A DNA stretch of 64,000 bases from Planctomycetota bacterium (GTDB lineage Bacteria; Planctomycetota; UBA1135; UBA2386), in NCBI GenBank assembly GCA_965228735.1, contig OZ245838.1, forward strand, positions 2,976,001-3,040,000. Direction: 5' to 3'. Position 1 is the first letter of the stretch. Each line of letters starts with the position of its first letter. The notes under the pieces were generated by a model, which was given only the letters and a program-made list of their open reading frames with translations, made no database searches and was not told the origin of the DNA. Below, piece after piece: positions 22,950 through 46,155 of this stretch. The position numbers and the translations under genes were made by a program.

Positions 22950-23915
22950 CTACGGGCCGACCGTCAGCTCGAGACCCCGAGAGAACGCGAACCCGGCCAC
23001 GGCCGTCGGATCGGTGTGGGCGAACTGGCCGTAGATCGAGATGCCGGTGAACGTCGGATCGTTCGGCAGCGCGATCGGCACGAGCGTCGCCGCCGGCGTC
23101 GGCGGCACGAACAGCGCAACCGTGGCGAGCGGGTCCACGAGCAGCGTGCCACCGACCGGCGTCGGCAGAGTTGCCGCGGCCAGGCCGAGCGCGACGACGC
23201 CGAACTCCTGCGTTGAGCGCACCGTCGTCGCGCGCAGGTCGATCGTGGTGCCGAGCTGCGGCGGCGACGACGGGACCAGATTGGGGATGCCCTGCGCGCC
23301 CGGCAGACCCGCACCGTAGTTGCGCCAGCAGCTCTGGCACGGACCGATGTAGAGGTCGTCGATGTAGAAGTCGTTGGGGAAGGCGCTCGTGTTGAGGTTG
23401 CGAATCGCGACCTCCACGGAACCGGTCGCGCCGGCCACCCAGGTGGCGCCGGAAGTCTGCCAGATGCCCGTCAAGTGCGGCAGCGGCAGCGGTGCACCCA
23501 CGAGTTGCCCTCCGACCTGCCACTGCAGGATCGCAGGCCCGCCGGCGACCGCCGTGCAGCCCGCGAGTTCGAACCGGTAGGTGACGCCCGCGACGACCGG
23601 CACGGAGGCGAACCAGACCCGTTGATTGGGCACGGTCGAACCGTTGACGACCATGAACTGCGAGCTGCCCGCGGAGGCCGGCGGCGGATTGACGAACGCC
23701 CCGTTGAACGAGCTGCCGTTGGCCCGGACGGTGTACTGCCCTTCGCAGCAGTTGGCGCCGGCGGAGTAGCCGTAGTCCGACGAGAAGCCCACGTTGCCCG
23801 ACTCGAAGCCGGGGTTCGGCGCCAAGTTCTGAGCCGGGAGCGCGGTGACGACCGCACCGAGGAAGGCACCGGCCGCGATTCCGCAGAAATGCCACGAGGA
23901 GATGGATGGGTTCAC
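22950..23915 (-). CDS. Secreted protein with carbohydrate-binding-like beta-sandwich and shared C-terminal domain
   Basis: QNLAPNPGFESGN, FMVVNG, NDFYIDDL; C-terminal YGAG..G..GIP..LPNDP..SRGLELTVGP; start GTG 23915 uncertain. Confidence 0.7.
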   Translation of the reverse strand: MNPSISSWHFCGIAAGAFLGAVVTALPAQNLAPNPGFESGNVGFSSDYGYSAGANCCEGQYTVRANGSSFNGAFVNPPPASAGSSQFMVVNGSTVPNQRVWFASVPVVAGVTYRFELAGCTAVAGGPAILQWQVGGQLVGAPLPLPHLTGIWQTSGATWVAGATGSVEVAIRNLNTSAFPNDFYIDDLYIGPCQSCWRNYGAGLPGAQGIPNLVPSSPPQLGTTIDLRATTVRSTQEFGVVALGLAAATLPTPVGGTLLVDPLATVALFVPPTPAATLVPIALPNDPTFTGISIYGQFAHTDPTAVAGFAFSRGLELTVGP

Positions 23916-24108
23916 ACCCGCCAAGGCGTCGGGTCGGGTAGTCGGCCGCCACCAGAACGAGAAGATTGCGGACGAGGCCACACGCGCCCCAAAAACGTCG
24001 CAGCTGCCCGGCCCGCCTACGCCTGGTGCGACGCCGCGCCTAGACTGTCCAATCGCACCCGCCGCTGCCATCGTCCGGTCGCGGCCACTTCGCTCCCCAG
24101 GATCCGCC

Positions 24109-26109
24109 TTGGCTCACCGCATCACCCTGTTCCTCGCGACGCTCCTCGCCCTCGCGACTTCTCCCACCGCGCTCGCCCAGGAAGGCAGCAAGAACGAAGG
24201 CGGCAGCATCCGCGTCACGCCGGCCAAGGTCACCTTGCCCGTCGGCGAGACGACCGAGTTGACCGCTGAGGTGCTCGACGTCGGCGGTCGCCCGGTCGAA
24301 GGCGCGCGCGTCATGTTCTTCTCCCGCGCCCGTCGCTCGCTGCGCGTCAGCCGCGAGGGCGAGGTCACGGCGATCAAGCCCGGCACCTACGAGGTCGTGG
24401 CCCGGGCGCTCGGCGGCCCGCGCGAGAGCCGCCCGACCGCGACCGTCGAAGTCACGGTGCCGTACCCCGAGCCGGCCGACATCACGATCACCGGGCTGCC
24501 GAAGCGCCTCTACGCCGGCACGACGGTGCGGCTCGGTGGCGACGTCGTCGACCAGAACGGCACGGCGCGCGACGACCTCGACGTCGCGTTCAAGACGAGC
24601 GATTCGAGCCTCGCGAAGGTCGACGCGTTCGGCCACGTGACCGCGATCGCCGCCGGCCAGGTGACGCTCATGGCGGCCGGTGGCGGGCTCGAGAAGAAGC
24701 TCGATGTCACGGTCGTCGACAACCCGGTGCAGCAGGTCGACCTCGTCGCGGATGCCGAAGTCGTGCGGACCGGTGACGTCGTGCACCTCGACACCAATCT
24801 GCAGAACGGCAGCGGCGGCAACGTCGACGGCGTGCCGGTGTTCTACTCGTTCCACGCCGCGCCCGACGACACGCTGGGCAACGCGGCGACGGGCCAGATC
24901 ACGCAGGACGGTCGCTTCGTCGCGGAGAAGCCGGGCCTCTACACCATCATCGCCACCTGCGGCACCGCGACCGACCGCCTGACGATCCGAGCCAACGAGC
25001 GCTTCGAGCAGCAGCGCCGGCTCCAGCGCATCGGCCACGGGCCCGTGCTCGACGTGCACACCTCCGACCTCTGGGTCTGGGAAGGTGTCGACGGCCGCGA
25101 CTACTGCGTCACGGGAACGTGGGGCGCCAACGGCGACGCGATCTTCTGGGACGTCACCGACCCCTCCCGCATCGAGAAGATCTCGACCGTGACCGTCGAC
25201 GCGCGCACGGTGAACGACGTCAAGGTCAGCGAGGACGGGCGGCTCTGCATCATCAGCCGCGAGGGCGCGAGCAACCGCAAGAACGGCATCGTCGCGTTCG
25301 ACGTGACCGACCCGCGCAACCCGGAACGCATCAGCGAGTTCAACGATGAGCTCACGGGCGGCGTGCACAACCTGTTCATCAACGAGGGCTTCGCCTACGC
25401 GTTGAGCGCGGGCCGGCGCTACGACATCCTCGACATCAAGAACCCGCGCGCGCCGATCCGCGTCGGCAGCTACCAGGTGTTCGAGCCCGGCGCATCCATC
25501 CACGACGTCTGGGTCGTCGACGGCATCGCCTACTCGTCGAACTGGCGCTACGGCCTGCACCTCGTCGACGTCGGCAACGGCATCAAGGGCGGCTCGCCGA
25601 GCAATCCGGTCAAGATCGGCAACTACGCGTATCCGAGCGGTTGGAACCACGCGGCGTTCCCGTGGAAGAACGAGAAGACCGGCAAGTTCTACGTCTTTGC
25701 CGGGGACGAGGCGTTCCCCTACGGGCTCAGCGTGAAGAACAACCCGACGTACCCGCGCGGGTGGATCCACATCGTCGACTTCACGAACCTCGAGGAGCCC
25801 GAAGAGGTCGCGCGCTACGAGGTGCCCGAGGCCGGCACGCACAACCTGTGGATCGAGGACGAGACGCTCTACGTCGCCTACTACAACGCCGGCCTGCGCG
25901 TCGTCGACATCTCGGGTGAACTCATGGGCGATCTCTACCGCCAGGGTCGCGAGATCGCGTGGTTCCTGCCGACGCACCCGAAGGGCGTCGTGCCGAACGC
26001 GCCGATGGCCTGGGGCCCGCAGCCCTACAAGGGCCACATCTTCATCTCCGATTGGAACTCGGGCCTGTGGGCGACGAAGCTCGTCGAGAACCGGGGGCGC
26101 CGCCGGTGA
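24109..26109 (+). CDS. Secreted Ig-like (Big_2) + LVIVD-repeat protein
   Basis: Signal peptide; SDSSLAKVDAFGHVTA Ig motif; HDVWV, LHLVDV, HNLWI, LRVVDIS repeats; TTG start assumed. Confidence 0.8.
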   Translation: MAHRITLFLATLLALATSPTALAQEGSKNEGGSIRVTPAKVTLPVGETTELTAEVLDVGGRPVEGARVMFFSRARRSLRVSREGEVTAIKPGTYEVVARALGGPRESRPTATVEVTVPYPEPADITITGLPKRLYAGTTVRLGGDVVDQNGTARDDLDVAFKTSDSSLAKVDAFGHVTAIAAGQVTLMAAGGGLEKKLDVTVVDNPVQQVDLVADAEVVRTGDVVHLDTNLQNGSGGNVDGVPVFYSFHAAPDDTLGNAATGQITQDGRFVAEKPGLYTIIATCGTATDRLTIRANERFEQQRRLQRIGHGPVLDVHTSDLWVWEGVDGRDYCVTGTWGANGDAIFWDVTDPSRIEKISTVTVDARTVNDVKVSEDGRLCIISREGASNRKNGIVAFDVTDPRNPERISEFNDELTGGVHNLFINEGFAYALSAGRRYDILDIKNPRAPIRVGSYQVFEPGASIHDVWVVDGIAYSSNWRYGLHLVDVGNGIKGGSPSNPVKIGNYAYPSGWNHAAFPWKNEKTGKFYVFAGDEAFPYGLSVKNNPTYPRGWIHIVDFTNLEEPEEVARYEVPEAGTHNLWIEDETLYVAYYNAGLRVVDISGELMGDLYRQGREIAWFLPTHPKGVVPNAPMAWGPQPYKGHIFISDWNSGLWATKLVENRGRRR

Positions 26110-27176
26110 GCGCCGGACTCGGACGCGCCTTCGCGGCGGCGATCGGAATCCTGGCGATTGGGGCGCTGCCGGCGCAGGACCGGGTCTATCGCGTCTATGT
26201 CGCGTGCGAGTCCGCGGACGAGGTGCATCGCGTCGCGTTCGACGGCAAGCACGCGACGGTCGAGAAGGCGATCCGCGTCGGCTATCAGGCGACCGAGATC
26301 GAGGGGCCGCACGGCCTCACGGTCGGTCCCGAGGGCAAGTACTGGTACCTGTCGATCGCGCACGGCAAACCGTTCGGCCTGCTCTACAAGTACCGCACGT
26401 CCGATGACGAGCTCGTCGGCGAGTGCGAGCTCGGCATGTTCCCCGCGACGATGCAGATCAGTGCTCTGACCGGGCTGCTCTACTGCGTCAACTTCAACCT
26501 GCACGGGCGTATGCTGCCGAGCTCGGTGTCGATCGTCGACCCCGACGCGATGGTCGAGGTCGCGCGCACGATGACGGGCGCGATGCCGCACGGCTCGCGG
26601 CTGACGAAGGACGGCACGAAGCACTACTCGTGCGCGATGATGTCGGGCGAGCTGTACGAGATCGACGCCGTGACGTTCGAGGTCACGCGCAACATGCAAC
26701 TCGACGTCGACCTGCCGAAGAACCACGCATCGGTTGCCAAGCCGACCTGGATCCAGCCGCACCCGAAGACCGCGACGGTATGGGCCGCGCTCAACGGCAA
26801 GGCCGAGCTCGTCGAGGTCGACACGGTCGACTGGGTCATCAAGCGCCGATTCGCCTGCGCCAAAGGCCCCTACAACCTCGAGATCACGGGCGACGGCAAG
26901 CTGCTCGTCGTGACCTACAAGACCGCGGGCAAGATCGGCATCTGGGACGTCGAGCAGGGCAAGGAACTCGCCCGGCTCGACTCGAGCCGCCGCGTCACCC
27001 ACGGCGTGGTGATCAGCCCCGACGACCGCTACGCGTTCGTGACCTCGGAGGGCAAGAACGCCGAACCCGGCGCCCTCGACGTCGTCGACCTGCGCACGTT
27101 CAAGATCGCAGCGAGCGTCGAGGTCGGCCTGCAGGCCGGCGGCATCGCGTTCTACGAGATGACGTCGGGCCAGTGA
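26106..27176 (+). CDS. YncE/YVTN-like beta-propeller protein
   Basis: Signal peptide; YVACESAD, GPHGL, MPHG, THGVVISPDDRYAFVT; GTGA overlap with upstream gene. Confidence 0.82.
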   Translation: MSAGLGRAFAAAIGILAIGALPAQDRVYRVYVACESADEVHRVAFDGKHATVEKAIRVGYQATEIEGPHGLTVGPEGKYWYLSIAHGKPFGLLYKYRTSDDELVGECELGMFPATMQISALTGLLYCVNFNLHGRMLPSSVSIVDPDAMVEVARTMTGAMPHGSRLTKDGTKHYSCAMMSGELYEIDAVTFEVTRNMQLDVDLPKNHASVAKPTWIQPHPKTATVWAALNGKAELVEVDTVDWVIKRRFACAKGPYNLEITGDGKLLVVTYKTAGKIGIWDVEQGKELARLDSSRRVTHGVVISPDDRYAFVTSEGKNAEPGALDVVDLRTFKIAASVEVGLQAGGIAFYEMTSGQ

Positions 27177-34886: not shown

Positions 34887-37544
34887 TCACAGCGCGATGT
34901 CATTGACATCGTCGTAGCGCAACTGCAGCGGGATCCGGTGGACGACCTCGTCGTCGTCGTTCAGCAGCTGCAGTTCGACCGCCGTGTCCGGCACCTGGTA
35001 GACGGGTGAGCCACCCGATCGCACGGCCAGCCGGCGGAACGAGGAGATGACGTCCGGGCGGTGGACCGTGGTCACGATGGCCTGGCCCGCGGCATCCACG
35101 ACCTGCAGCTGCGTCACGCCGGCGGGGAACGTTCCGACGAGGCGGAACTTGCCCTGGCGCGCGACGACGATGCGCCCGTCGGCCCCGGGCGCGGGCACGT
35201 CGTGCGTGCCATCGACGATCCCGGGGCCGGTGAGCCACAGCCGCACCCCGCGCTGCGGACAATCGGTCACGCGCCACCGCCCTGCTGCATCGGTGCTCCC
35301 GGCCCGCGGCAGGGAGATGAACGTCGAGCTCGACGGTCCGCGCTCCGTCGTCGCGGTCACCGCGACCCGCACACCCTCGACCGGCTGGCCGAAACGGTCG
35401 ACGACCATGCCCGACAGCTCCGGCAGGATCGCGTCGACCGGCGCGCGCAGCACGACGTCGGTCGACCCGGCGGCAATCGGACCCGACTCGATCACGAGCA
35501 GCGACGTCGGTTCGACGATACGCAGCGAATACTCGCGCGGCAGGAGCGAGCCGATCTCGAAGGACCCGTCCGCGCCCGTCAACCACTCGCCGCCGCGCTG
35601 CCGCCCGTCGAGCCAGGCCTCGAGCGAACCGGTGAACGTGCCCCACGTCGTGCCGTCGTCGAGATAGACGTTGGCCTTCGCGAGTGGCTCGCCGTCCGGA
35701 CCGAGTGCGCGGCCACGGATCGTGAGCGGCTCGCCGCCGAGCGTCAGTGTCAGGTCCCGCCCGGCCGCGCGGTCGGCGCGCAACCGCGGCGCCAGCCCGT
35801 CCATGACCGCCGGCTGGAAGCCGACGAGGTGCGCCGTCACGGGTCCATCGAACCCGCTGCCGCCGATCTCGAACTCGAACCGCCCGTTCGCGTCGGCGGT
35901 CGCTCCCGTGCTGCCGAAGCGCACGTAGGCCTCGGCCGCGGGTCGACCGTCCGCGTGCCGGACGACGCCGGACACGATGGTGCGCTCGCTCGCCGGCGCG
36001 GCCCGCAGGGTCCAGGTGACGGGCGGCACGACCTCGTCCGCCGGAGTCGACAGCGTCACGTGACCGCGCTTCTGCGCCGTGACCCGCAGCAGCGCGTGGG
36101 CCGGAACCGTCCCGAGGTCGAACGTCCCGTCCGCGCTCGAGCTGTCGCTGAACGATCGATACCCCGACGAGTGCTCGAACCGCTGCGCGATGCCGGGCAG
36201 CGACTCGATGCTGTAGCCGACGCTGACGTACGCATCGTCGATCCCCGCCCCGTGGTCGTCGACGATGCGACCCGCAACGTGAACGGCCGGCCCGACGATC
36301 ATCGTCACCTGGCGGTCGTTCGGCAGCACGCCGTAGCCGTAGAGGATCCAGTCCGTCCCTGCGATGCGCAGATACTCGGCTTCGTCCGTGCCGACGATCT
36401 CGAACTGCCCGCGGCCATCGGTCGCGGCGCGCGGCCGCGTCGCCGTGCCGAGGAGCAACTGCTCGACGAACTCCGCATCGTGGCCGAACTGGCTCGCGAA
36501 ATGACGCCGCGCGGGTTCGATGGTGCGCAGCTGCTGCAGGTGGCCAGGCTCGAGCGTCATCGACATGTTCGGCCAACGCAGCTCGTTGCCGACGAGCTGC
36601 GGCAACTTCGGATCGAAGTGCACGACCTCGATGCCGGGCAGCGGCCGACCATCGACGGTCAGCACCTGACCCGCGAAGCGACCGCCCTCGGTCGGCGCGT
36701 CGACGTCCGTAGTCGATTCCGCAGCGGTCGCGACCGCTTCCCGCGTGGGTCTCGGATCCGCCGCGACGTCGGCGCGTTGGACGTTCGCCGCCGCCGTTGC
36801 CGTGGACCGGCCGGTCGAATCCGGCACGGGCTCGCGCCAGTCGACGCCGATGACTTCGAGACCGAGAACGAGCGCCAGCACGGCGCCCACGAGCGGCAAC
36901 ATCCACTTCATCGTGAGGCTCCCCAGGAGAACGATCATGGGAACGCCAGCACCGGCCGCAGCAGCGGTCGCCTTCGCCGCCCCGCGGGCGGAGAACAGCG
37001 GCAGCAACGCGGCACACCAGGCCTGCCGGTCGCCGAACTCGTCGTCGAGCCGCGCCCGCATGCGCTCGAGCCCGCGCTGGAGCTGCGTGCGCACCGTGTT
37101 CACGGGGCGGTCGAGACGTTCGGCGATCTGCCGCGGCTCGAGGTCGTCGAAGAAGCGGAGCAGCACCACGGTGTGATACGGCTCGTCGAGCTCGAACAGC
37201 TCGTCGACGAGGCGCTTGTGCGCGGCCGCGCGTTGCGCGGCCTCGGCCGGATCGTCGCTCGGGTCGTGCGCGCGAGCGGCCACCGATTCGGCGGCGACCG
37301 TTGCCTCACGACGACGACGACGACCGTCCTGGCGACCAAACCCGCGCGCGGCGTTCTTCGCGACCCGCGCGAGCCAACCCTTGGGATTGGTCAACGCGCG
37401 GGGCGGCCGCGTCATGGCCTCGAGCATCGTCTGCTGCGCGACGTCGTCGGCGCGCGAAGGATCGGCCACGAGGCTGCGCGCGAGCGCGCGGACCCAGTCC
37501 TGGTGGGCGAGCAGAGTGGCGATGGTCGAATCGGTTCCGGTCAT
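34887..37544 (-). CDS. ECF sigma factor fused via TM segment to carboxypeptidase-regulatory-like repeats
   Basis: WVRALARSLVAD..ADDVAQQT..GWLARVAKN (sigma2); LDEPYHTVVLLRFF..IAERL..TVRTQLQRGL (sigma4); TM; G.V.D..G.P..TD..G.F repeats. Confidence 0.88.
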   Translation of the reverse strand: MTGTDSTIATLLAHQDWVRALARSLVADPSRADDVAQQTMLEAMTRPPRALTNPKGWLARVAKNAARGFGRQDGRRRRREATVAAESVAARAHDPSDDPAEAAQRAAAHKRLVDELFELDEPYHTVVLLRFFDDLEPRQIAERLDRPVNTVRTQLQRGLERMRARLDDEFGDRQAWCAALLPLFSARGAAKATAAAAGAGVPMIVLLGSLTMKWMLPLVGAVLALVLGLEVIGVDWREPVPDSTGRSTATAAANVQRADVAADPRPTREAVATAAESTTDVDAPTEGGRFAGQVLTVDGRPLPGIEVVHFDPKLPQLVGNELRWPNMSMTLEPGHLQQLRTIEPARRHFASQFGHDAEFVEQLLLGTATRPRAATDGRGQFEIVGTDEAEYLRIAGTDWILYGYGVLPNDRQVTMIVGPAVHVAGRIVDDHGAGIDDAYVSVGYSIESLPGIAQRFEHSSGYRSFSDSSSADGTFDLGTVPAHALLRVTAQKRGHVTLSTPADEVVPPVTWTLRAAPASERTIVSGVVRHADGRPAAEAYVRFGSTGATADANGRFEFEIGGSGFDGPVTAHLVGFQPAVMDGLAPRLRADRAAGRDLTLTLGGEPLTIRGRALGPDGEPLAKANVYLDDGTTWGTFTGSLEAWLDGRQRGGEWLTGADGSFEIGSLLPREYSLRIVEPTSLLVIESGPIAAGSTDVVLRAPVDAILPELSGMVVDRFGQPVEGVRVAVTATTERGPSSSTFISLPRAGSTDAAGRWRVTDCPQRGVRLWLTGPGIVDGTHDVPAPGADGRIVVARQGKFRLVGTFPAGVTQLQVVDAAGQAIVTTVHRPDVISSFRRLAVRSGGSPVYQVPDTAVELQLLNDDDEVVHRIPLQLRYDDVNDIAL

Positions 37545-37648
37545 GGCGTTCACGACCCCAGTGCCGCGGGGCCGCGAGCGGACTCACGAATACCCCGATT
37601 CTACCCCGACCTCGGCCAGGATCTCGCAAGACCCGACTGACAAGGTGG

Positions 37649-38929
37649 TTACGACCAGGCGTCGAGCAGCCGCCGGCACTCGGCGAGCAGCCAATCGGAC
37701 TCTTCGAACGGCCGCAGGCTGATGTCCTGCCACAGGATGCGCCCCTTCGGATCGACGAGGAACGTGCCGTGCAGCGCTTCGTCCGAGAACTCGTCCCAGC
37801 AGTTCCACTGCTTGAACACCGCGCCCTGCGGGTCGCACAGGACTTCGAAGTGCAGCGGATCGACGCCGTTCTCCTGCGCCGCCTGCCACGCCGCGCGCAC
37901 GGCGTTCTGATCGTCGGTGCCGATCGTCACGACCTCGATCCCGGCGGCGTTGAACTTCGGGGTCTTGGGTTCCAGCTCGACCAGCTGGGCGACGCAGTGC
38001 GCTCAACCAAAGCCGAGGAAGAACACGACGAGCACGGGTTTGCCCGCGTAGTCGGCGAGCTTGCCGCGACCGTTGAGGCCGCGGGGGAGATCGAATGCCG
38101 GGGCCTGCTGCGGCTGCCATTCCAAGCCGTCCTCACTGCCACCCATCAGGACCGTCAGCTTCGACAAGTGGCCGTCCGGGAGCCAAAGCCGTGGGAAGTG
38201 CAGCTGCGGATGCCGCGGCAGCCGCGGCGCCACCCGCGTGTTCAGGTCCAGGCGCGCACTACCGAGGCCGCCCACGGACTCGCTGTAGCCGGGAACCAGG
38301 AACGGCATCGCGGCCATCCGCCGCATGTAGCCGTTGGCCGCCGAGTAGAACGCTTCGAACGTCGCCAGCGATGGTGACGAGTCACCATCGCAGCCCGCCC
38401 TCGTCTTGGGCCCCAATGTTCGAGCCTGCTCGAATCCCGCGAGCCTCGCGGCCAACGAGCCGTCGATCTCGCGCAGCCGCGCAATCAGCGTCTCGGCACG
38501 CTCGACGGGCTCCTTCTGAAAACCCGCATCGACGAGCTCCGGCTGCCGATCGACTCCGAAGTACTCCCGATACGCTGCGACGATGGCCGCTTCGGGCGCC
38601 GGCGCCTTGCCGACGAACTTGTTCGCCTGCCACACGAGCCGCGCCGCGCGGTTGTTGTTCGACCGCAACGACAGCGCGAGCCCGAGATGCGCGATCGCCC
38701 GCTCCGGCTCGCGATGCGCGAGCTCGCGGAACATGCGGGCCGCCTCCCAGCCCCAACCCGCGGCGAGCCGTTCGAGGCCCGCGTCGAGCAGTTCGGTGCT
38801 CGACAATGCCGGATCCGGCCGGCGCCACGGCAGGTCCCGCGCCAGATCCTGCGCTCGCAACGGTGCTACCGCGCACGTCACGAGCAGCACGACCGTCGCG
38901 ACGGCGCGGAAACGAACTTCGGTTCGCAT
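37649..38929 (-). CDS. Putative selenoprotein: signal peptide + TPR-like region + AhpC/TSA redoxin with UxxC (UGA read-through at 38005-38003)
   Basis: APAFDLP..LADYAGKPVLVVFFLGFG-TGA-AHCVAQL..GIEVVTIGTD..LCDP..HGTFLVDPKGRILWQD in one frame; joins track ORFs 38003..38929 and 37649..37930. Confidence 0.85.
37972..37988 (-). promoter_or_regulatory. Candidate bacterial SECIS hairpin
   Basis: Minus strand CCAGCT-GGTCG-AGCTGG, 6-bp perfect stem from +15 after the UGA, loop starting GG at +21. Confidence 0.65.
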
Positions 38930-41042: not shown

Positions 41043-43346
41043 TCAGCGCGGCGCGGCAACGTCCAGTCCCGTGACGCGCATCCCGGCGAAGTAATAGGGC
41101 TCCGCCCGGCCGGGCGCGCGGGCAACGGCACGCCGGGCCTCGAACATCGCCGCGCTGAACGTCTGCCCTTCGCTCCACCGCTGCAGTGCGCCAGCGAGCA
41201 GGTCGCGCGTCGCGCCGACCGACAGATCACCATGCGCGAGCGCCACACAGTCGGCGCCGGCGAGCAGGAACGCGCCGCCCAGATGGTTCACCCCACCGTC
41301 ACCGAGCCGGGACGGGCCCGCTGCTGCGCCGCAGACGCCGAGCATGACGAGCGGTGGCGCTGCAAGACTCTCGACACCATCGGGGAAGACGGGCTCCGCG
41401 CCAGCGAGCAGCACGCCGGCCGGTCGCTCGCGACGATAGTCGTAGACCCCGTGCGAGAACACGCAGAGGGCGCGCGCCGCAGCCGTCTCGCGATCGCGCA
41501 GAGCCGCCGGCGTCGCCCGCGCGCCCCAGAGCGCGCGCACACGATCCGCAGCGAACGGTGCCGTGAACCGCGACCGCCGCGCCGCCGACATGCCGATCGG
41601 TTCGACACCCCAGCGCGCAGCGGTCTCGACGTCGAACTCGGGATCCCCCACGACCGTCAGGTCCTTGCCATGGGCCGGCGCGCCCTTGGCGGCGCGGGCT
41701 TCACGGCGGAGCCGGAGCGCCTGCCCGACGGCGACCGACGGCAGGAAGCGCATCGGTGTCTGCAGGCACCACCAGCCGTCGCTCCACGGCAGCAGCTGGA
41801 ACGTGCGGCTCGACAGCTCCGGGCCGACGAGCACGACCTCGCGCCAGCCCGCGACCCGCTCGCGCACCGCCGGCGGCAGCAGATAACCCGCCACCCGCGT
41901 CGCGATCTCACGCACCGGCACCCCCGACGGGCGGCGGTCGAGACTGTCGCGCAGCGCGTAGGCATCGGGCCAGAACGCCCGCCCGAGCGGCAGCGTGTGA
42001 TGCTCCCCGCCGTTCTCGTCGATCAGGAGCAGCGACGCGGACCACGGGCTGAACACGAACATCAGCAGGCCGCCGCCGCTGGGGACCAGGCTGCGCGCGA
42101 CGTCCAGGCCGACCGGCGCGCCATCCGCGACGAGCCGGCGGGACAGGGTGCCGAGCGCGAACGCCGCCTCCATGTGGCCGAACGCGGCCGCGATCCCGCC
42201 ATCCCCTCCGGCCGTCGCCCGATCGAGCTCGAGCAACGTGCCGAGCAACACCCGCTGGTTGCCGTACTGCAACGCCCCTCCGCCGCCATGGCGCACCGGC
42301 CGCCGCCGCCAGGACTCGAGCCAGTCCCGGGTCGCCCGTTCGAGGTCACGATGCAGGGCGCGCAACTCGGCGCGCGGCCGTGCCGCGGCGAGCGCGGTAC
42401 GCGCGCGCAGGGCCAGGATCTCGGCGTCGGTCCTGGTCGGCTCCGTCGATTCGCCGAACAACTCGTCGAGCATCCGCTCCGCGCGCTCCGGATCGCCGAG
42501 CTCGAGACAGATCTCGACCGCGATGATGCCGGCGCGCAAGGCACTGCCACCGAGCAAGCGGACGCGCAACTTCAACAGGTCGTCTAGCACACTCGAGAGC
42601 GCCACGGCGTCGGCCGCGAGCTGATAGCGCGCGAGCAGCAAGCGATACTCGAGATCGGTGCGCTGCGACTCGTTCAGCCCGGCGAACGCAGAATCGGCGA
42701 GCGCGCCCCGAGCTCGCTTCTGCACGCGATCCGTTCGCCCGAGCGCGAGCTGGACATCGAGCTCGAGCACGAGCACGTAGTAGCGCCACCCCAGATCGTC
42801 CTTCACGAGCTCGGCGAGGGCTTCGAGGTCCCCGAACGCGCGGTCCGGCAGCCCGAGATCGAGATGGCAGCGAATCCGTTCGGTTCGCAGCTGCTGCCAC
42901 ATGTAGCGCGTCAGCGCGCCCCTCGAGCCCGCCTGCACCAGGCCCTCGTCCGCGGCCGCGAGCAGCTCGAGCCCTTCCCATGGTCGTTCTTCGAGCCGAA
43001 CGACGCTCGCCTGGTAGACCCGGGCGAGCGGGTGATACTGCTCGACCGGACTCGCGAGCACCGCCCGACAGCTCGCGCGCGCGACGTCGTAGGGCGCCTT
43101 TCGCAGGTCGGCGTCGATCTTGCCGATATGCGCCCGCACGGCGGCCACGGCCTCGGCCGACGGCTGCTGCGCTTCGGGCCCGACCGATGGTTGCTCGGTC
43201 TCGGCGCTCGCCGATGGCTTCGGCGCGGCCTCGACCGGCTCACCCCGATCGAACGCGCCGAGGATCGCAGCGCCCCAGATGCCCGCGCCGAGGACGACGG
43301 CGGCGGCGAACAGAACGCCGGCTCGGCCCGAAACGGACCGCCTCAG
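41043..43346 (-). CDS. Membrane-anchored helical-repeat + CHAT (caspase/HetF-like) protease
   Basis: N-terminal TM; VVLVGP.L..FQLLP, VVGDP, CVFSHG (His), VMLGVC (Cys), LGGAFLLAGA, ARRAV; start may be CTG 43346 (CTGA overlap) or ATG 43451. Confidence 0.82.
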   Translation of the reverse strand: MRRSVSGRAGVLFAAAVVLGAGIWGAAILGAFDRGEPVEAAPKPSASAETEQPSVGPEAQQPSAEAVAAVRAHIGKIDADLRKAPYDVARASCRAVLASPVEQYHPLARVYQASVVRLEERPWEGLELLAAADEGLVQAGSRGALTRYMWQQLRTERIRCHLDLGLPDRAFGDLEALAELVKDDLGWRYYVLVLELDVQLALGRTDRVQKRARGALADSAFAGLNESQRTDLEYRLLLARYQLAADAVALSSVLDDLLKLRVRLLGGSALRAGIIAVEICLELGDPERAERMLDELFGESTEPTRTDAEILALRARTALAAARPRAELRALHRDLERATRDWLESWRRRPVRHGGGGALQYGNQRVLLGTLLELDRATAGGDGGIAAAFGHMEAAFALGTLSRRLVADGAPVGLDVARSLVPSGGGLLMFVFSPWSASLLLIDENGGEHHTLPLGRAFWPDAYALRDSLDRRPSGVPVREIATRVAGYLLPPAVRERVAGWREVVLVGPELSSRTFQLLPWSDGWWCLQTPMRFLPSVAVGQALRLRREARAAKGAPAHGKDLTVVGDPEFDVETAARWGVEPIGMSAARRSRFTAPFAADRVRALWGARATPAALRDRETAAARALCVFSHGVYDYRRERPAGVLLAGAEPVFPDGVESLAAPPLVMLGVCGAAAGPSRLGDGGVNHLGGAFLLAGADCVALAHGDLSVGATRDLLAGALQRWSEGQTFSAAMFEARRAVARAPGRAEPYYFAGMRVTGLDVAAPR

Positions 43347-44128
43347 AAGAGCGGGTGACTCGCGACGAAGGTCTCGTTCCGGACGAACGCCGTCACCTGC
43401 CAGATCGCCGTCTGCGGCAGGCCGTCCAGTACGGCTTGGGTCAGTCGCCATTCGGTTGCTTGGATCGCGGACTTCTCGAACCGCGGGGTCGCGGTCGTGT
43501 CCGCGCTGGCGAACACGGCGAGAGTGTAGTCCGTCCCGGGTGGAATGCCGCCCCCGGGCAACTCGAGCGTCCACGAGAGGAGCAGCTCGGCACCATCCGC
43601 CTGGACCCGCAGCACGAGTTCTTCGTCACCGAGGGTCTGGTTATCGTCGTTCGTCGGTTGCGCGGGCCCGGAGAAGACGCCGACCGCCCACAGCAGCAGG
43701 ACAGCGGCGGCCGCCGCGCCCGCGAACATGCCGATGCGCGCCGGGCCGCGCCGCAGCGTCGCGGCCGTCGGTTCCTGGGTCCCGGATCCGCGCACCTCGG
43801 GTTCATCCGCACCGCCCGGCAGCGGCCGAACGGCACCGGTGTCGCCGCCACCGAGGGCGAGCTGCCGCAGGGTCCTCGCAACCGTCGACTCCTCGGCCGA
43901 GCTCGTCGCCATGGCCTCGGCCTCGGCGAGCAGTTCGCGCTCGCGTTCGGCATCGGTCGCCAGCTGACCCTGCACGTCCTGCAATTCGGTGAGCGCCGCC
44001 GCGAACGCGGGGTTCTGCGCGGCCGCGGCCGCAACGTCGGGATCGTCACCCGCACGCTCGCCGGTCACGACGGCCGCGAGCAGCTGCTCCTCGCGATCGG
44101 ACAGTGGTGTTCGTGGTGTTCCGGTCAT
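43343..44128 (-). CDS. Putative single-TM anti-sigma factor
   Basis: ATGA-coupled downstream of ECF sigma; helical N-terminus, TM IGMFAGAAAAAVLLLWAVGVF, extracytoplasmic beta domain. Confidence 0.65.
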   Translation of the reverse strand: MTGTPRTPLSDREEQLLAAVVTGERAGDDPDVAAAAAQNPAFAAALTELQDVQGQLATDAERERELLAEAEAMATSSAEESTVARTLRQLALGGGDTGAVRPLPGGADEPEVRGSGTQEPTAATLRRGPARIGMFAGAAAAAVLLLWAVGVFSGPAQPTNDDNQTLGDEELVLRVQADGAELLLSWTLELPGGGIPPGTDYTLAVFASADTTATPRFEKSAIQATEWRLTQAVLDGLPQTAIWQVTAFVRNETFVASHPLF

Positions 44129-44724
44129 TCTCCGTCCTCCTCCCTGGACCGGTAGAAACGGCGCAACGAGTCGAGTCCGCGGTAGTACCGCGATTTGACA
44201 GTGTTCGGAGACAGCAGAAGTTGCGCAGCAATCTCGAGAAAAGTGAGGCCCTGGTAGTGCTTCTTCCGGATGACCTGCGCTTCCCCCGGTGGCAACGCGT
44301 CGATCCCCTGTTGCAGCCGCTCGGAGTCGGCGTCGAACTCCGGCGCGGGCGCGGCCAGCTCGGCGACGTCGTCGAGGGAGACGCCGGTCCGCGACCCGGA
44401 GCCGACGCGGCGCAACGCGTTGCGCATCTGGAAGTCGCAGATGCGGAACACCCACGTCTCGAGCGCGGCATCACCGCGATAGTCCGCGAGCCGGCGCCAG
44501 ACGACGGCGAGCACATCCTGCACGATGTCGTCGAGGATCTCGGGCGCGAGGCTCTGACGACGACGGGCCGCGAGGCACTTCACGAACCGTGGGACGCAGT
44601 GCATCCGCTCGATGAACTGGTCGAGCGCGTCGGGCTGGCGGGCCAGAACATCGGCCACGAGCGCGAGATCCGCCGTGGCCGGTGACCGCTCGCCGTCGCC
44701 CGCCTCAGCTCCGGACGCACCCAT
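44125..44724 (-). CDS. ECF-family RNA polymerase sigma factor
   Basis: DDIVQDVLAVVWRRLADYRG..ETWVFRI (sigma2); LTFLEIAAQL..NTVKSRYYRGL (sigma4). Confidence 0.92.
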   Translation of the reverse strand: MGASGAEAGDGERSPATADLALVADVLARQPDALDQFIERMHCVPRFVKCLAARRRQSLAPEILDDIVQDVLAVVWRRLADYRGDAALETWVFRICDFQMRNALRRVGSGSRTGVSLDDVAELAAPAPEFDADSERLQQGIDALPPGEAQVIRKKHYQGLTFLEIAAQLLLSPNTVKSRYYRGLDSLRRFYRSREEDGE

Positions 44725-44835
44725 GCAGCGACCCGCATTCGGGAAAAAGTGGGCGATCGGGCGAGCGGCGCCGGGCGGCAAACATGGCCACCCAGCATAG
44801 CGCCGCGGTGGCCATGAGGGCCACCGGGTCCCGGA

Positions 44836-46026
44836 CTACTGCTTCATGAACCGCTCGAGGTCGGCCACGTAGTGGTCGTCCTCATGGAGTGCTATGGCCT
44901 TCTTCGCCGCCTTCACCGCCTTCTCGGTCTGGCCGTTGAGGTGCTGGCACCAGGCGACCGTGTTCCAACAATAGGCCTCGTACTTCGCGAGCTTCTCGGC
45001 GTCGTCGCCGCCTTCCGCTTTCTGGTCCGCGACCTTCTTCTGCATCTTCGTGAGCGCGCTCTCGGCGAGCTGCAGCGCGAACTTCTTCTCCTTGCTCGTG
45101 CGCTCGTCGCCGTTCTCGACGATCCAGCGCGCGACGCCATTCGACCAGTCGACGACCTTGTCGTCCGGGCAGGTCTTCCACGCCGAGTGGAACGCGGCGA
45201 ACGCGGCCTGGTCGTCCTCGCGCTTCAGCTCCATGTTGCCGATCTGCACCCAGGCCTCGTGCCTGGCCTCGGCCGGCTTGACGAGTCGAACGTGCGCGTA
45301 GAGCGGCTCGAGGTCCCACTTGCGGATGCGTTCGGCGCGCTGCGCGTCCGTCTCCTGCATCCCGTCGCCATCCTGGCCGTCGCCGTCGCCGTCGCCGCCG
45401 CCGACGATCTCCCGAATGACGTCCTGCATGCGAACGCGCGCGCCGACGACCGTCTTGCCCTTGCTGTCGATCGTCCGGATCGACTCCATGAGTTCGTCGT
45501 GGCGATCGTCGTTGCCGAGCGCCTGGACCTTGCCCGCGAGGGCCCAGCGCGCCTCGATGTCCTCGGTGCTGCCGTCCTCGTGCTGCTCGATCTGCCGCCG
45601 CAGACCGCGCACGGTGCCCTCGCCCCTCCGGATGCGCCGGAGTTCCGCGTCGAAGTCGGCCACGGGGATGAACCCCTGGATCAGATCGTCGGCCTGACCG
45701 TCGGGCGTCAGGAACAGGATCGTCGGCAGCGTCCGAACGCCGTACTTCTCGAACACGTCCTGCACGCCGTCACCGCCGTGCTTGGCGCTGTAGCACACGA
45801 ACTCGCGCATCGCGCCGGCGGCCTCGTCCGTGCTCAGCGTCTCCTGCCAGAGCTTGCCGCAGTAGTCGCTGCCGTCGGCCCAGCAGTAGACCAGGATCGG
45901 GCGGTCGGACGCCGCCGCGCGCTCGGTCGCATCAGCGAGCGAGTAGACCCAGTCGACGGGCCGGGGCGGCGTCAGCGGCAACGCGGCGGCGAGCAGGAGA
46001 ACGGAGACGAACGGAGTCGGGGTCAT
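44836..46026 (-). CDS. Secreted thioredoxin-like (SxxC) + helical/TPR protein, paralog 1
   Basis: Signal peptide; W..SL..A..RA....RPILVYCWADGSDYC; YGVRTLPTILFL cis-Pro loop; C-terminal TPR-like helices. Confidence 0.78.
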   Translation of the reverse strand: MTPTPFVSVLLLAAALPLTPPRPVDWVYSLADATERAAASDRPILVYCWADGSDYCGKLWQETLSTDEAAGAMREFVCYSAKHGGDGVQDVFEKYGVRTLPTILFLTPDGQADDLIQGFIPVADFDAELRRIRRGEGTVRGLRRQIEQHEDGSTEDIEARWALAGKVQALGNDDRHDELMESIRTIDSKGKTVVGARVRMQDVIREIVGGGDGDGDGQDGDGMQETDAQRAERIRKWDLEPLYAHVRLVKPAEARHEAWVQIGNMELKREDDQAAFAAFHSAWKTCPDDKVVDWSNGVARWIVENGDERTSKEKKFALQLAESALTKMQKKVADQKAEGGDDAEKLAKYEAYCWNTVAWCQHLNGQTEKAVKAAKKAIALHEDDHYVADLERFMKQ

Positions 46027-46155
46027 CGCTTGGACTTTCTCGGTTGGGAGTGGTGAGGTCGCGCGGCGTCGCGCGATACGTCCTCCGAGTTGCCGCGCGA
46101 TCCGCATCGGACTCACGCCGATCCACGGCCGGGAAACGAACCCGACCCGCCCGTG

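Follow-up and report, generated by a model that had tools for sequence, protein, structure and literature searches.

The minus strand of the window analysed here (the whole stretch of 64,000 nucleotides) carries a gene of a marine planctomycete with one in-frame TGA that is very likely decoded as selenocysteine (Sec), at residue 309 of a predicted protein of 426 aa. Judged from its sequence, this protein is probably an exported selenoprotein that acts as a periplasmic thiol:disulfide reductase, with a UxxC motif on a peroxiredoxin-like fold. It appears to descend from a longer, Cys-type protein of Planctomycetes, and among its close orthologs Sec and Cys alternate at the active site. The gene and its parts are given below in window positions.

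37649..38929 (-): full read-through gene, 426 aa, single in-frame TGA (U309), TAA at 37651-37649; orthologs are collinear across the codon
38852..38929 (-): predicted signal peptide, residues 1-26, recognised by eye from a basic start, a hydrophobic core and a PLRA/QD junction
38192..38800 (-): TPR-like domain, helical throughout (about residues 44-246), from AlphaFold2 helices and profile-profile alignment to the long form of the protein
37652..38119 (-): redoxin domain of AhpC/TSA type at about residues 271-426, from PF00578 and from fold matches (Z 12-15) to chains of Prx, BCP, DsbE and ResA
38003..38005 (-): predicted selenocysteine U309, first residue of U-A-H-C, in the Cys column of homologs; 5/19 family orthologs have TGA
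37994..37996 (-): Cys312, second residue of UxxC, aligned with the peroxidatic Cys of peroxiredoxins
37972..37988 (-): predicted SECIS hairpin CCAGCT-GGUCG-AGCUGG, own fold -10.3 kcal/mol, kept in 5/5 TGA orthologs and 0/14 Cys orthologs
37769..37771 (-): His387, where peroxiredoxins have their Arg and thioredoxins the cis-Pro; ALHGTF is aligned with AFRGLF

The gene and its in-frame TGA

A sequence-only reading of this DNA had proposed that the TGA at 38005-38003 splits one gene whose frame runs on to 426 aa, and translation confirms this: 308 codons, the TGA, 117 codons and the TAA fill the minus-strand frame 38929-37649, and with TGA translated as U the protein reads KPVLVVFFLGFG-U-AHCVAQL. 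As that reading also had it, the UGA takes the place of the first Cys of a CxxC motif (here U-A-H-C, with Cys at position 309 in homologs) and the frame continues into an AhpC/TSA domain. PF00578 (cut-off 26) bridges the TGA from residue 274 to residue 399 with 74.7 bits (E 8e-21), and PF08534 scores 53.7 bits for the read-through protein against a cut-off of 26.6. Read-through at 38005-38003 is above chance; with regard to coding-like sequence on both sides, this codon ranks third among the 113,788 TGA codons of the genome. Contigs assembled from four sequencing runs, each a possible source of this DNA, are identical over all 1,401 bases, and all of them have TGA, not TGC or TGT, at the codon. 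A promoter and terminator scan gave no signal exceeding that of shuffles. A search of RNA runs gave none with the gene, which speaks neither for nor against its expression.

Mis-annotation by standard pipelines had been foreseen and does occur, as the public versions of the Sec-type protein are cut at FFLGFG and stored as 'hypothetical proteins'. One public record from the cluster of this gene (P0082, 405 aa) is without exactly 21 codons round the UGA (window 38047-37985). Since the missing 63 nt start with GC and end with AG, a eukaryotic gene finder seems to have taken this stretch for an intron. Because Sec forms are stored truncated and one record omits the codon, the family seems to be Cys-only, an annotation error that is corrected here.

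Selenocysteine machinery of the host

The host genome is a single contig of 7.19 Mb, and the search for selA, selB, selD and tRNA-Sec that had been called for found the whole set: SelA (E 1e-109), SelB (336.6 bits, cut-off 242), a tRNA-Sec with UCA anticodon (76.6 bits) and SelD, whose gene itself has one TGA at the usual N-terminal site. SelA, SelB and tRNA-Sec were also found in the TGA-type genomes G154, G167 and G179. A code in which UGA stands for Trp fits neither CCA, the anticodon of the sole tRNA-Trp found in the host, nor the Cys of the homologs.

Selenocysteine and cysteine among orthologs

The protein search gave 60 matches, 48 with CxxC and 12 that stop precisely at FFLGFG (one being this gene's own cluster); labels of the homologs name the phylum Planctomycetota. 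For the alignment 38 of the 48 CxxC homologs were taken, 10 partial, near-duplicate or divergent ones being left out, and all 38 full-length homologs have Cys at position 309. At the level of DNA, 19 orthologs of the short gene were found among 91 genomes of the family. The column of the UGA holds TGA in five (G000, G154, G313, G167 and G179, from three genera) and TGC or TGT in 14, and thus Cys or TGA with no other residue; since the TGA orthologs come from related genomes, these counts are not independent. The four other TGA genes each have 117 stop-free codons past the TGA and 20-30 synonymous differences from the gene in the window. A scan of genome contigs gave one locus, the same as in G154. 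A metagenome scan gave 27 loci, searched with Cys-only patterns at the site, so that the frequency of Sec is not measurable from them.

In a tree rooted on the long forms two Cys genes branch first, followed by a 25-row clade (96/89) in which all five Sec genes are interspersed with Cys genes. A tree with the Sec genes as a single clade is rejected (p-AU 0.0019) and at least three changes are required; for this test three near-identical metagenome rows were left out, and the group was set by codon after the tree had been seen. The pattern suggests switching between Sec and Cys within the short-form family. Most likely, Sec and hairpin were gained once and later reverted to Cys in several lineages in which selenoproteins are still made, because G313, G167 and G179 share an identical hairpin while G158 and G074 keep a partial one after a TGT codon. 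Three gains or gene transfer may have produced the same pattern, and the tree is without power to separate these from a single gain. According to published surveys, reversion from Sec to Cys is rare and mostly concerns FdhA and SelD (PMC1794560, PMC13188914), and reverted genes can hold remnant SECIS structures (PMC1794560).

Loss of the machinery as the cause of the Cys forms was rejected: of the 13 Cys-type genomes checked, 13 have SelA, 12 tRNA-Sec and 12 SelB (G301 is a duplicate of G154, and G309 and G313 lie outside this check). Several Cys-type genomes also retain TGA in another family. Close Sec and Cys orthologs in genomes that decode Sec provide a test case for the benefit of Sec to an enzyme.

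The hairpin downstream of the UGA

The 6-bp hairpin CCAGCT-GGTCG-AGCTGG, noted earlier as starting 15 nt past the UGA, was located at 37988-37972; its stem starts at the 15th base past the UGA and its loop after 20 bases. With a loop of 5, a stem of 6, G first, a spacing of 20 and -8.8 to -10.3 kcal/mol, it falls within the bSECIS consensus in our own simplified test. This consensus, as worded in the legend of Fig. 2 of PMC13188914, comprises a loop of 3-9, a stem of 4-16, G first, a spacing of 16-37 and at most -7.5 kcal/mol. Taken by itself, however, the hairpin is no more than chance. The first 80 nt past the TGA give z = +0.73 (of 200 shuffles, 150 fold equally well), and at the threshold of -7.5 kcal/mol the simplified test is passed after 14.6% of 1,500 Cys codons and after 18.7% of 1,500 ordinary TGA stops; a genome of 69% GC is the setting for this chance level.

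The hairpin is therefore unremarkable on its own and becomes evidence only because it co-occurs with the TGA in orthologs. The five TGA genes have CCAGCT(C/G)G..GAGCTGG at -8.8 to -10.0 kcal/mol, whereas the best hairpin of the 14 Cys genes reaches only -4.1 kcal/mol. When identical peptides were recoded at random, a passing hairpin arose in 11-45% of trials, because the codons of QL..EL are nearly self-complementary, and its conservation is therefore partly due to the amino acids. Among the long-form Cys genes, 1 of 14 passes the test (G153, -12.6), and GGUC loops also follow seven other candidate UGAs of the host genome. What holds of the SECIS-like hairpin as first described is thus its fit to the consensus and its presence in 5/5 TGA against 0/14 Cys orthologs, not its folding, which by itself is no better than that of shuffles.

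Protein architecture and active site

An AlphaFold2 model of the full-length protein, built on a 39-row alignment (pLDDT 87.6, pTM 0.86), consists of a helical domain followed by a fold of Prx/TlpA type. Fold searches place peroxiredoxins on top, followed by DsbE, ResA and TlpA chains, at Z of about 11-15. A single-sequence model of the N-terminal domain was poor (pLDDT 44). The description of this part as TPR-like is upheld by shape and descent but hardly by Pfam, as only 1 of 39 aligned members has a TPR match, a weak TPR_16. Export had been proposed through an unusual signal peptide: the N-terminus does look like a signal, and AQD(P/L) recurs in the alignment consensus at the predicted cleavage region, but the combination is ordinary here, a signal together with Sec being common, by eye, among the predicted selenoproteins of the host.

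In alignment with solved Prx chains, U309 falls on Thr, C312 on the peroxidatic Cys, and the Pro is replaced by Leu, with L-G-F-G-U-A-H-C standing opposite P-A-D-F-T-F-V-C of a peroxiredoxin. The position of His387 is His in 64 of 66 CxxC homologs, the other two being those that could not be parsed. As read from these alignments, the active site has the register of thioredoxins but lacks both the reductase Pro and the peroxidase Arg. An identity as peroxiredoxin was rejected, as the Pro and Thr of the PxxxT/SxxC motif are absent and so is the Arg expected where strand 3 of the Trx fold begins, the conserved His387 standing at this Arg/cis-Pro position. None of the NCBIfam models exceeds its cut-off for the read-through protein, the best reaching 40 bits; the SelL-related NF040769 (37.6 against 120 bits) and PrxU NF040737 (37.9 against 270 bits) both stay below. 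Overall, the earlier reading was supported with respect to Sec, hairpin, export and mis-annotation, while it overlooked the His at the cis-Pro/Arg site and the origin of the short form from a longer Cys paralog.

Descent from a long TPR-redoxin

The host genome also has a Cys paralog of about 780 aa, and residues 49-147 of the short protein match the long paralog of the same genome with E 1.7e-5. In a profile alignment the short form is collinear with the long one, minus a His-rich segment and about 300 C-terminal TPR residues; the score of this alignment is driven by the redoxin domain, and the N-terminal match consists of shared motifs and the E value of 1.7e-5. The long TPR-redoxin occurs in 69 of 401 genomes of the phylum, and Pfam TPR_2 is found in 12 of 17 long forms. 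Cys is present in every long-form locus read, 13/13 in one set and 14/14 in another. Three TGA-flagged matches were followed up as candidates for Sec in the long form and dismissed, all having Cys at CxxC. The short form is thus likely a duplicated and internally shortened version of a Cys-type planctomycete TPR-redoxin of about 780 aa.

The long TPR + AhpC/TSA proteins of planctomycetes (about 750-890 aa, with the NCBI label 'redoxin domain-containing protein') resemble the short form in their collinear N-terminal helices with MP.../LPRHP motifs and in a redoxin domain that is about 50% identical, with C-x-H-C and LHGTF in common. They differ in that they keep HPxHHYRIHLWD, AHMWHM and about 300 further TPR residues. 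A literature search found no characterisation of the long TPR-redoxin.

Relation to known systems

UxxC selenoproteins with these domains are not new as such. Table 1 of PMC13188914 catalogues both a Prx-like thiol:disulfide oxidoreductase (PF00578; UxxC or UxxU) and a Redoxin family protein (PF08534; UxxC), and the distance from known kinds implied by the earlier reading is not supported at this level. The likeness, drawn by domain and motif, covers the Pfam domains, UxxC, and a UGA with SECIS inside the ORF; judged against the table, the present protein differs in the 245-residue helical domain ahead and in the His at the cis-Pro/Arg site. The text of that review, as far as accessible, mentions neither 'Planctomycet' nor 'TPR' nor 'signal peptide'. 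Peroxiredoxins (AhpC/Prx1, BCP/PrxQ, Prx6) provide the best structural match (6q5v, Z 15.2, rmsd 2.2 A, 157 aligned), but in contrast to all of them, including Sec-Prx with TxxU, the Sec lies here at the Thr position and not at the peroxidatic Cys. With the TlpA/ResA/CcmG (DsbE) reductases the protein shares the CxxC register and the same fold insertion (Z 11-13), while His replaces the cis-Pro; the equivalence of this position is taken from PMC2757866. Its signal-like N-terminus, seen by eye and in the alignment, would suit a protein exported as these are. Elsewhere the host genome has four TlpA-like genes of the typical kind, with UxxC and the WP motif. From SCO1/SenC it differs in having UxxC and not CxxxC and in the lack of PF02630 in the 39 members, whereas the conserved His of the family would provide a likeness in the third potential ligand.

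For the planctomycete P1 from Porphyra, AhpC/TSA-type and thioredoxin-type selenoprotein candidates, annotated as two genes, appear in Table S9 of PMC4807772. This table gives gene numbers only, and its entries 'peroxiredoxin' and 'alkyl hydroperoxide reductase' may belong to the short-form family. A literature search, with most subscription journals outside its scope, found no paper on the short-form redoxin family.

Proposed function and alternatives

If the protein works as a reductase, SelB-GTP with Sec-tRNA(UCA) would act on the hairpin 15-31 nt past the UGA and Sec would be inserted at position 309. The signal peptide would be cut after Ala26, releasing the protein into the periplasm. 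From its position, Sec309 would make the nucleophilic attack, as does the leading Cys of CxxC in thioredoxins, and Cys312 would resolve the intermediate, giving a selenenyl-sulfide. The oxidised site might then regain electrons from a carrier in the membrane, for which the DsbD of the host, with a UxxC in its own C-terminal thioredoxin domain, is the most plausible candidate, and the helical domain may select the substrate or partner.

The reductase assignment is weakened because the cis-Pro of TlpA/ResA-type reductases is replaced by His. This His invites another reading of the same selenoprotein. In Sco proteins copper is held by two Cys and one His, and Sec309, Cys312 and His387 might likewise serve in the periplasm to bind, deliver or sense a soft metal (most likely copper) in a loosely Sco-like manner. 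His387 at the cis-Pro position, kept in 64/66 homologs, the additional internal His of the C-x-H-C motif and weak SCO1-SenC matches in 2 of 17 long forms all agree with such a site, yet PF02630 matches none of the 39 short forms, Sco chains stand low in the ranking of fold matches (Z 9.3-9.5, the top match having 15.2), the identified neighbours are not copper-related genes, and the Sco motif, according to PMC2757866, is CxxxC and not CxxC. We regard a metal site as unlikely. Slightly less probable still is its fuller version, a Sco-like chaperone or sensor in which Sec, Cys and His hold a soft metal such as copper, with His at the very spot where cis-Pro excludes metals, and in which Sec and Cys were switched repeatedly while relatives kept the machinery. 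If true, natural pairs of Sec and Cys forms would be at hand in a marine, oxygen-respiring bacterium whose selenoproteins number more than 30. The His at the cis-Pro site poses a cheap and decisive biochemical question.

An atypical periplasmic peroxidase, in which Sec attacks peroxide directly and His387 takes the place of Arg, is less probable than either metal reading. It would accord with peroxiredoxins as the nearest solved structures by sequence and fold, and with a host that has haem-copper oxidase subunits and many antioxidant-type selenoprotein candidates. However, the PxxxT/SxxC motif and the Arg are absent, most orthologs have a plain CxxC suited to dithiol exchange, scores against the NCBIfam Prx models are far under the cut-offs, and Sec forms of AhpC and BCP are already present in the host genome. 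Finally, the TGA might be a true stop or a nonsense mutation, making the gene a pseudogene, a split gene or a product of sequencing error. TGA is the ordinary stop of many host genes and a 93-aa ORF could begin at a downstream GTG, but that ORF would have neither the active-site residues nor an export signal, the four assemblies are identical, and five genomes from three genera have TGA at the same codon with downstream frame and hairpin intact, which makes this explanation very improbable. Termination at the UGA may well occur under low selenium and yield a 308-aa helical side product. A reductase with UxxC remains our preferred reading.

Genomic neighbourhood

Three genes near the selenoprotein gene deserve mention.

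34887..37553 (-): fusion of an ECF sigma factor with CarboxypepD_reg repeats, adjoining the gene; probably not part of the system
26094..27158 (+): YncE-like beta-propeller gene, the convergent gene that the family keeps as a neighbour, here at a distance of about 10 kb with other genes between
about 23833-26109 (+): long gene ahead of the propeller; its counterpart at the one locus scanned (L047) has Big_2 and LVIVD domains; with the propeller gene it takes up window 23833-27176

The ECF-sigma fusion pointed out earlier as lying next to the gene is indeed adjacent, starting 95 bases past the redoxin stop, but a meaning of this adjacency is not supported: it is seen at only 1 of 18 orthologous loci (G154), most of which cover only about 1.85 kb downstream. 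A functional link to the sigma factor was rejected on the ground of this unconserved neighbourhood. Similar long ECF-like genes number 15 in the host genome. By comparison, 14 of 18 orthologous loci have a convergent YncE-like beta-propeller gene close by, and the conserved position of this gene hints weakly at a shared function. In G179 (L130 / L147) the Sec ortholog runs in frame into a BNR, sialidase-like domain, and as no signal peptide lies between them, this domain would be made only upon read-through of the UGA.

Further upstream, at window 41043-44781 (-), a short gene stands between those for an ECF sigma factor (44781-44125) and a CHAT-domain protein (43574-41043); a similar cluster is also found upstream of the G154 ortholog. 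Window 44836-46116 (-) encodes a Thioredoxin_7/TPR protein with a signal-like N-terminus and C-W-A-D-G-S-D-Y-C in place of a CxxC.

Other predicted selenoproteins of the host

A read-through scan of the host genome, at thresholds that will miss some, gave candidates of which 40 were tested with Pfam and 29 of these also with NCBIfam. A family model extends across the TGA in 22 (SelD included), a further 10 seem real without a family across the codon, and 8 were rejected as gene junctions or unsupported. With the gene described here, the host has about 33 predicted selenoproteins (loci L074-L113). Among them are SelD, AhpC, BCP, four TlpA-like proteins, two deiodinase-like proteins with EF-hands, Grx, DsbD, two HMA proteins, MsrA, two AhpD, a VPGUxxC protein, an ArsC-like protein, a rhodanese, a SelL-related protein and others. 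Many candidates have signal-like N-termini by eye, and together with the UxxC of DsbD this makes an exported Sec redoxin normal for the organism. The host genome also has genes for haem-copper oxidase subunit I; so many predicted selenoproteins alongside such oxidases stand in contrast to the statement of a 2026 review that aerobic bacteria rarely retain selenoproteins (PMC13188914).

Some of these candidates are of interest in themselves. Three paralogs share (M/L)xGHPLGCT-U-(N/G)NG, with TGA at 4855623 (-), 7087946 (-) and 3484699 (+) (L092-L094); they have signal-like N-termini and no Pfam or NCBIfam match. A TGA lies somewhere in each of the 39 matches to this family, from 35 of 151 genomes of the class, and a literature search on the motif found nothing relevant. 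It is likely an uncatalogued CxU selenoprotein family. Three FG-GAP-repeat proteins with U-C-x4-PQFVD (TGA at 5872224 (-), 3065085 (+) and 406817 (-); L081-L083) have in common the hairpin loop AGUUC at spacing 19 and are a candidate vicinal Sec-Cys family; FG-GAP selenoprotein candidates also appear in PMC4807772. One HMA protein (L086, TGA at 583337 and 583577 (+)) has two repeats that are almost identical, each with GMT-U-GGC and its own identical hairpin, and thus two predicted Sec per chain; its N-terminus is signal-like. At 204570-205726 (+) two AhpC-type paralogs stand in tandem (L014, L015), the first with Cys (FTFVC) and the second with TGA (YTFV-U) followed by a strong hairpin.
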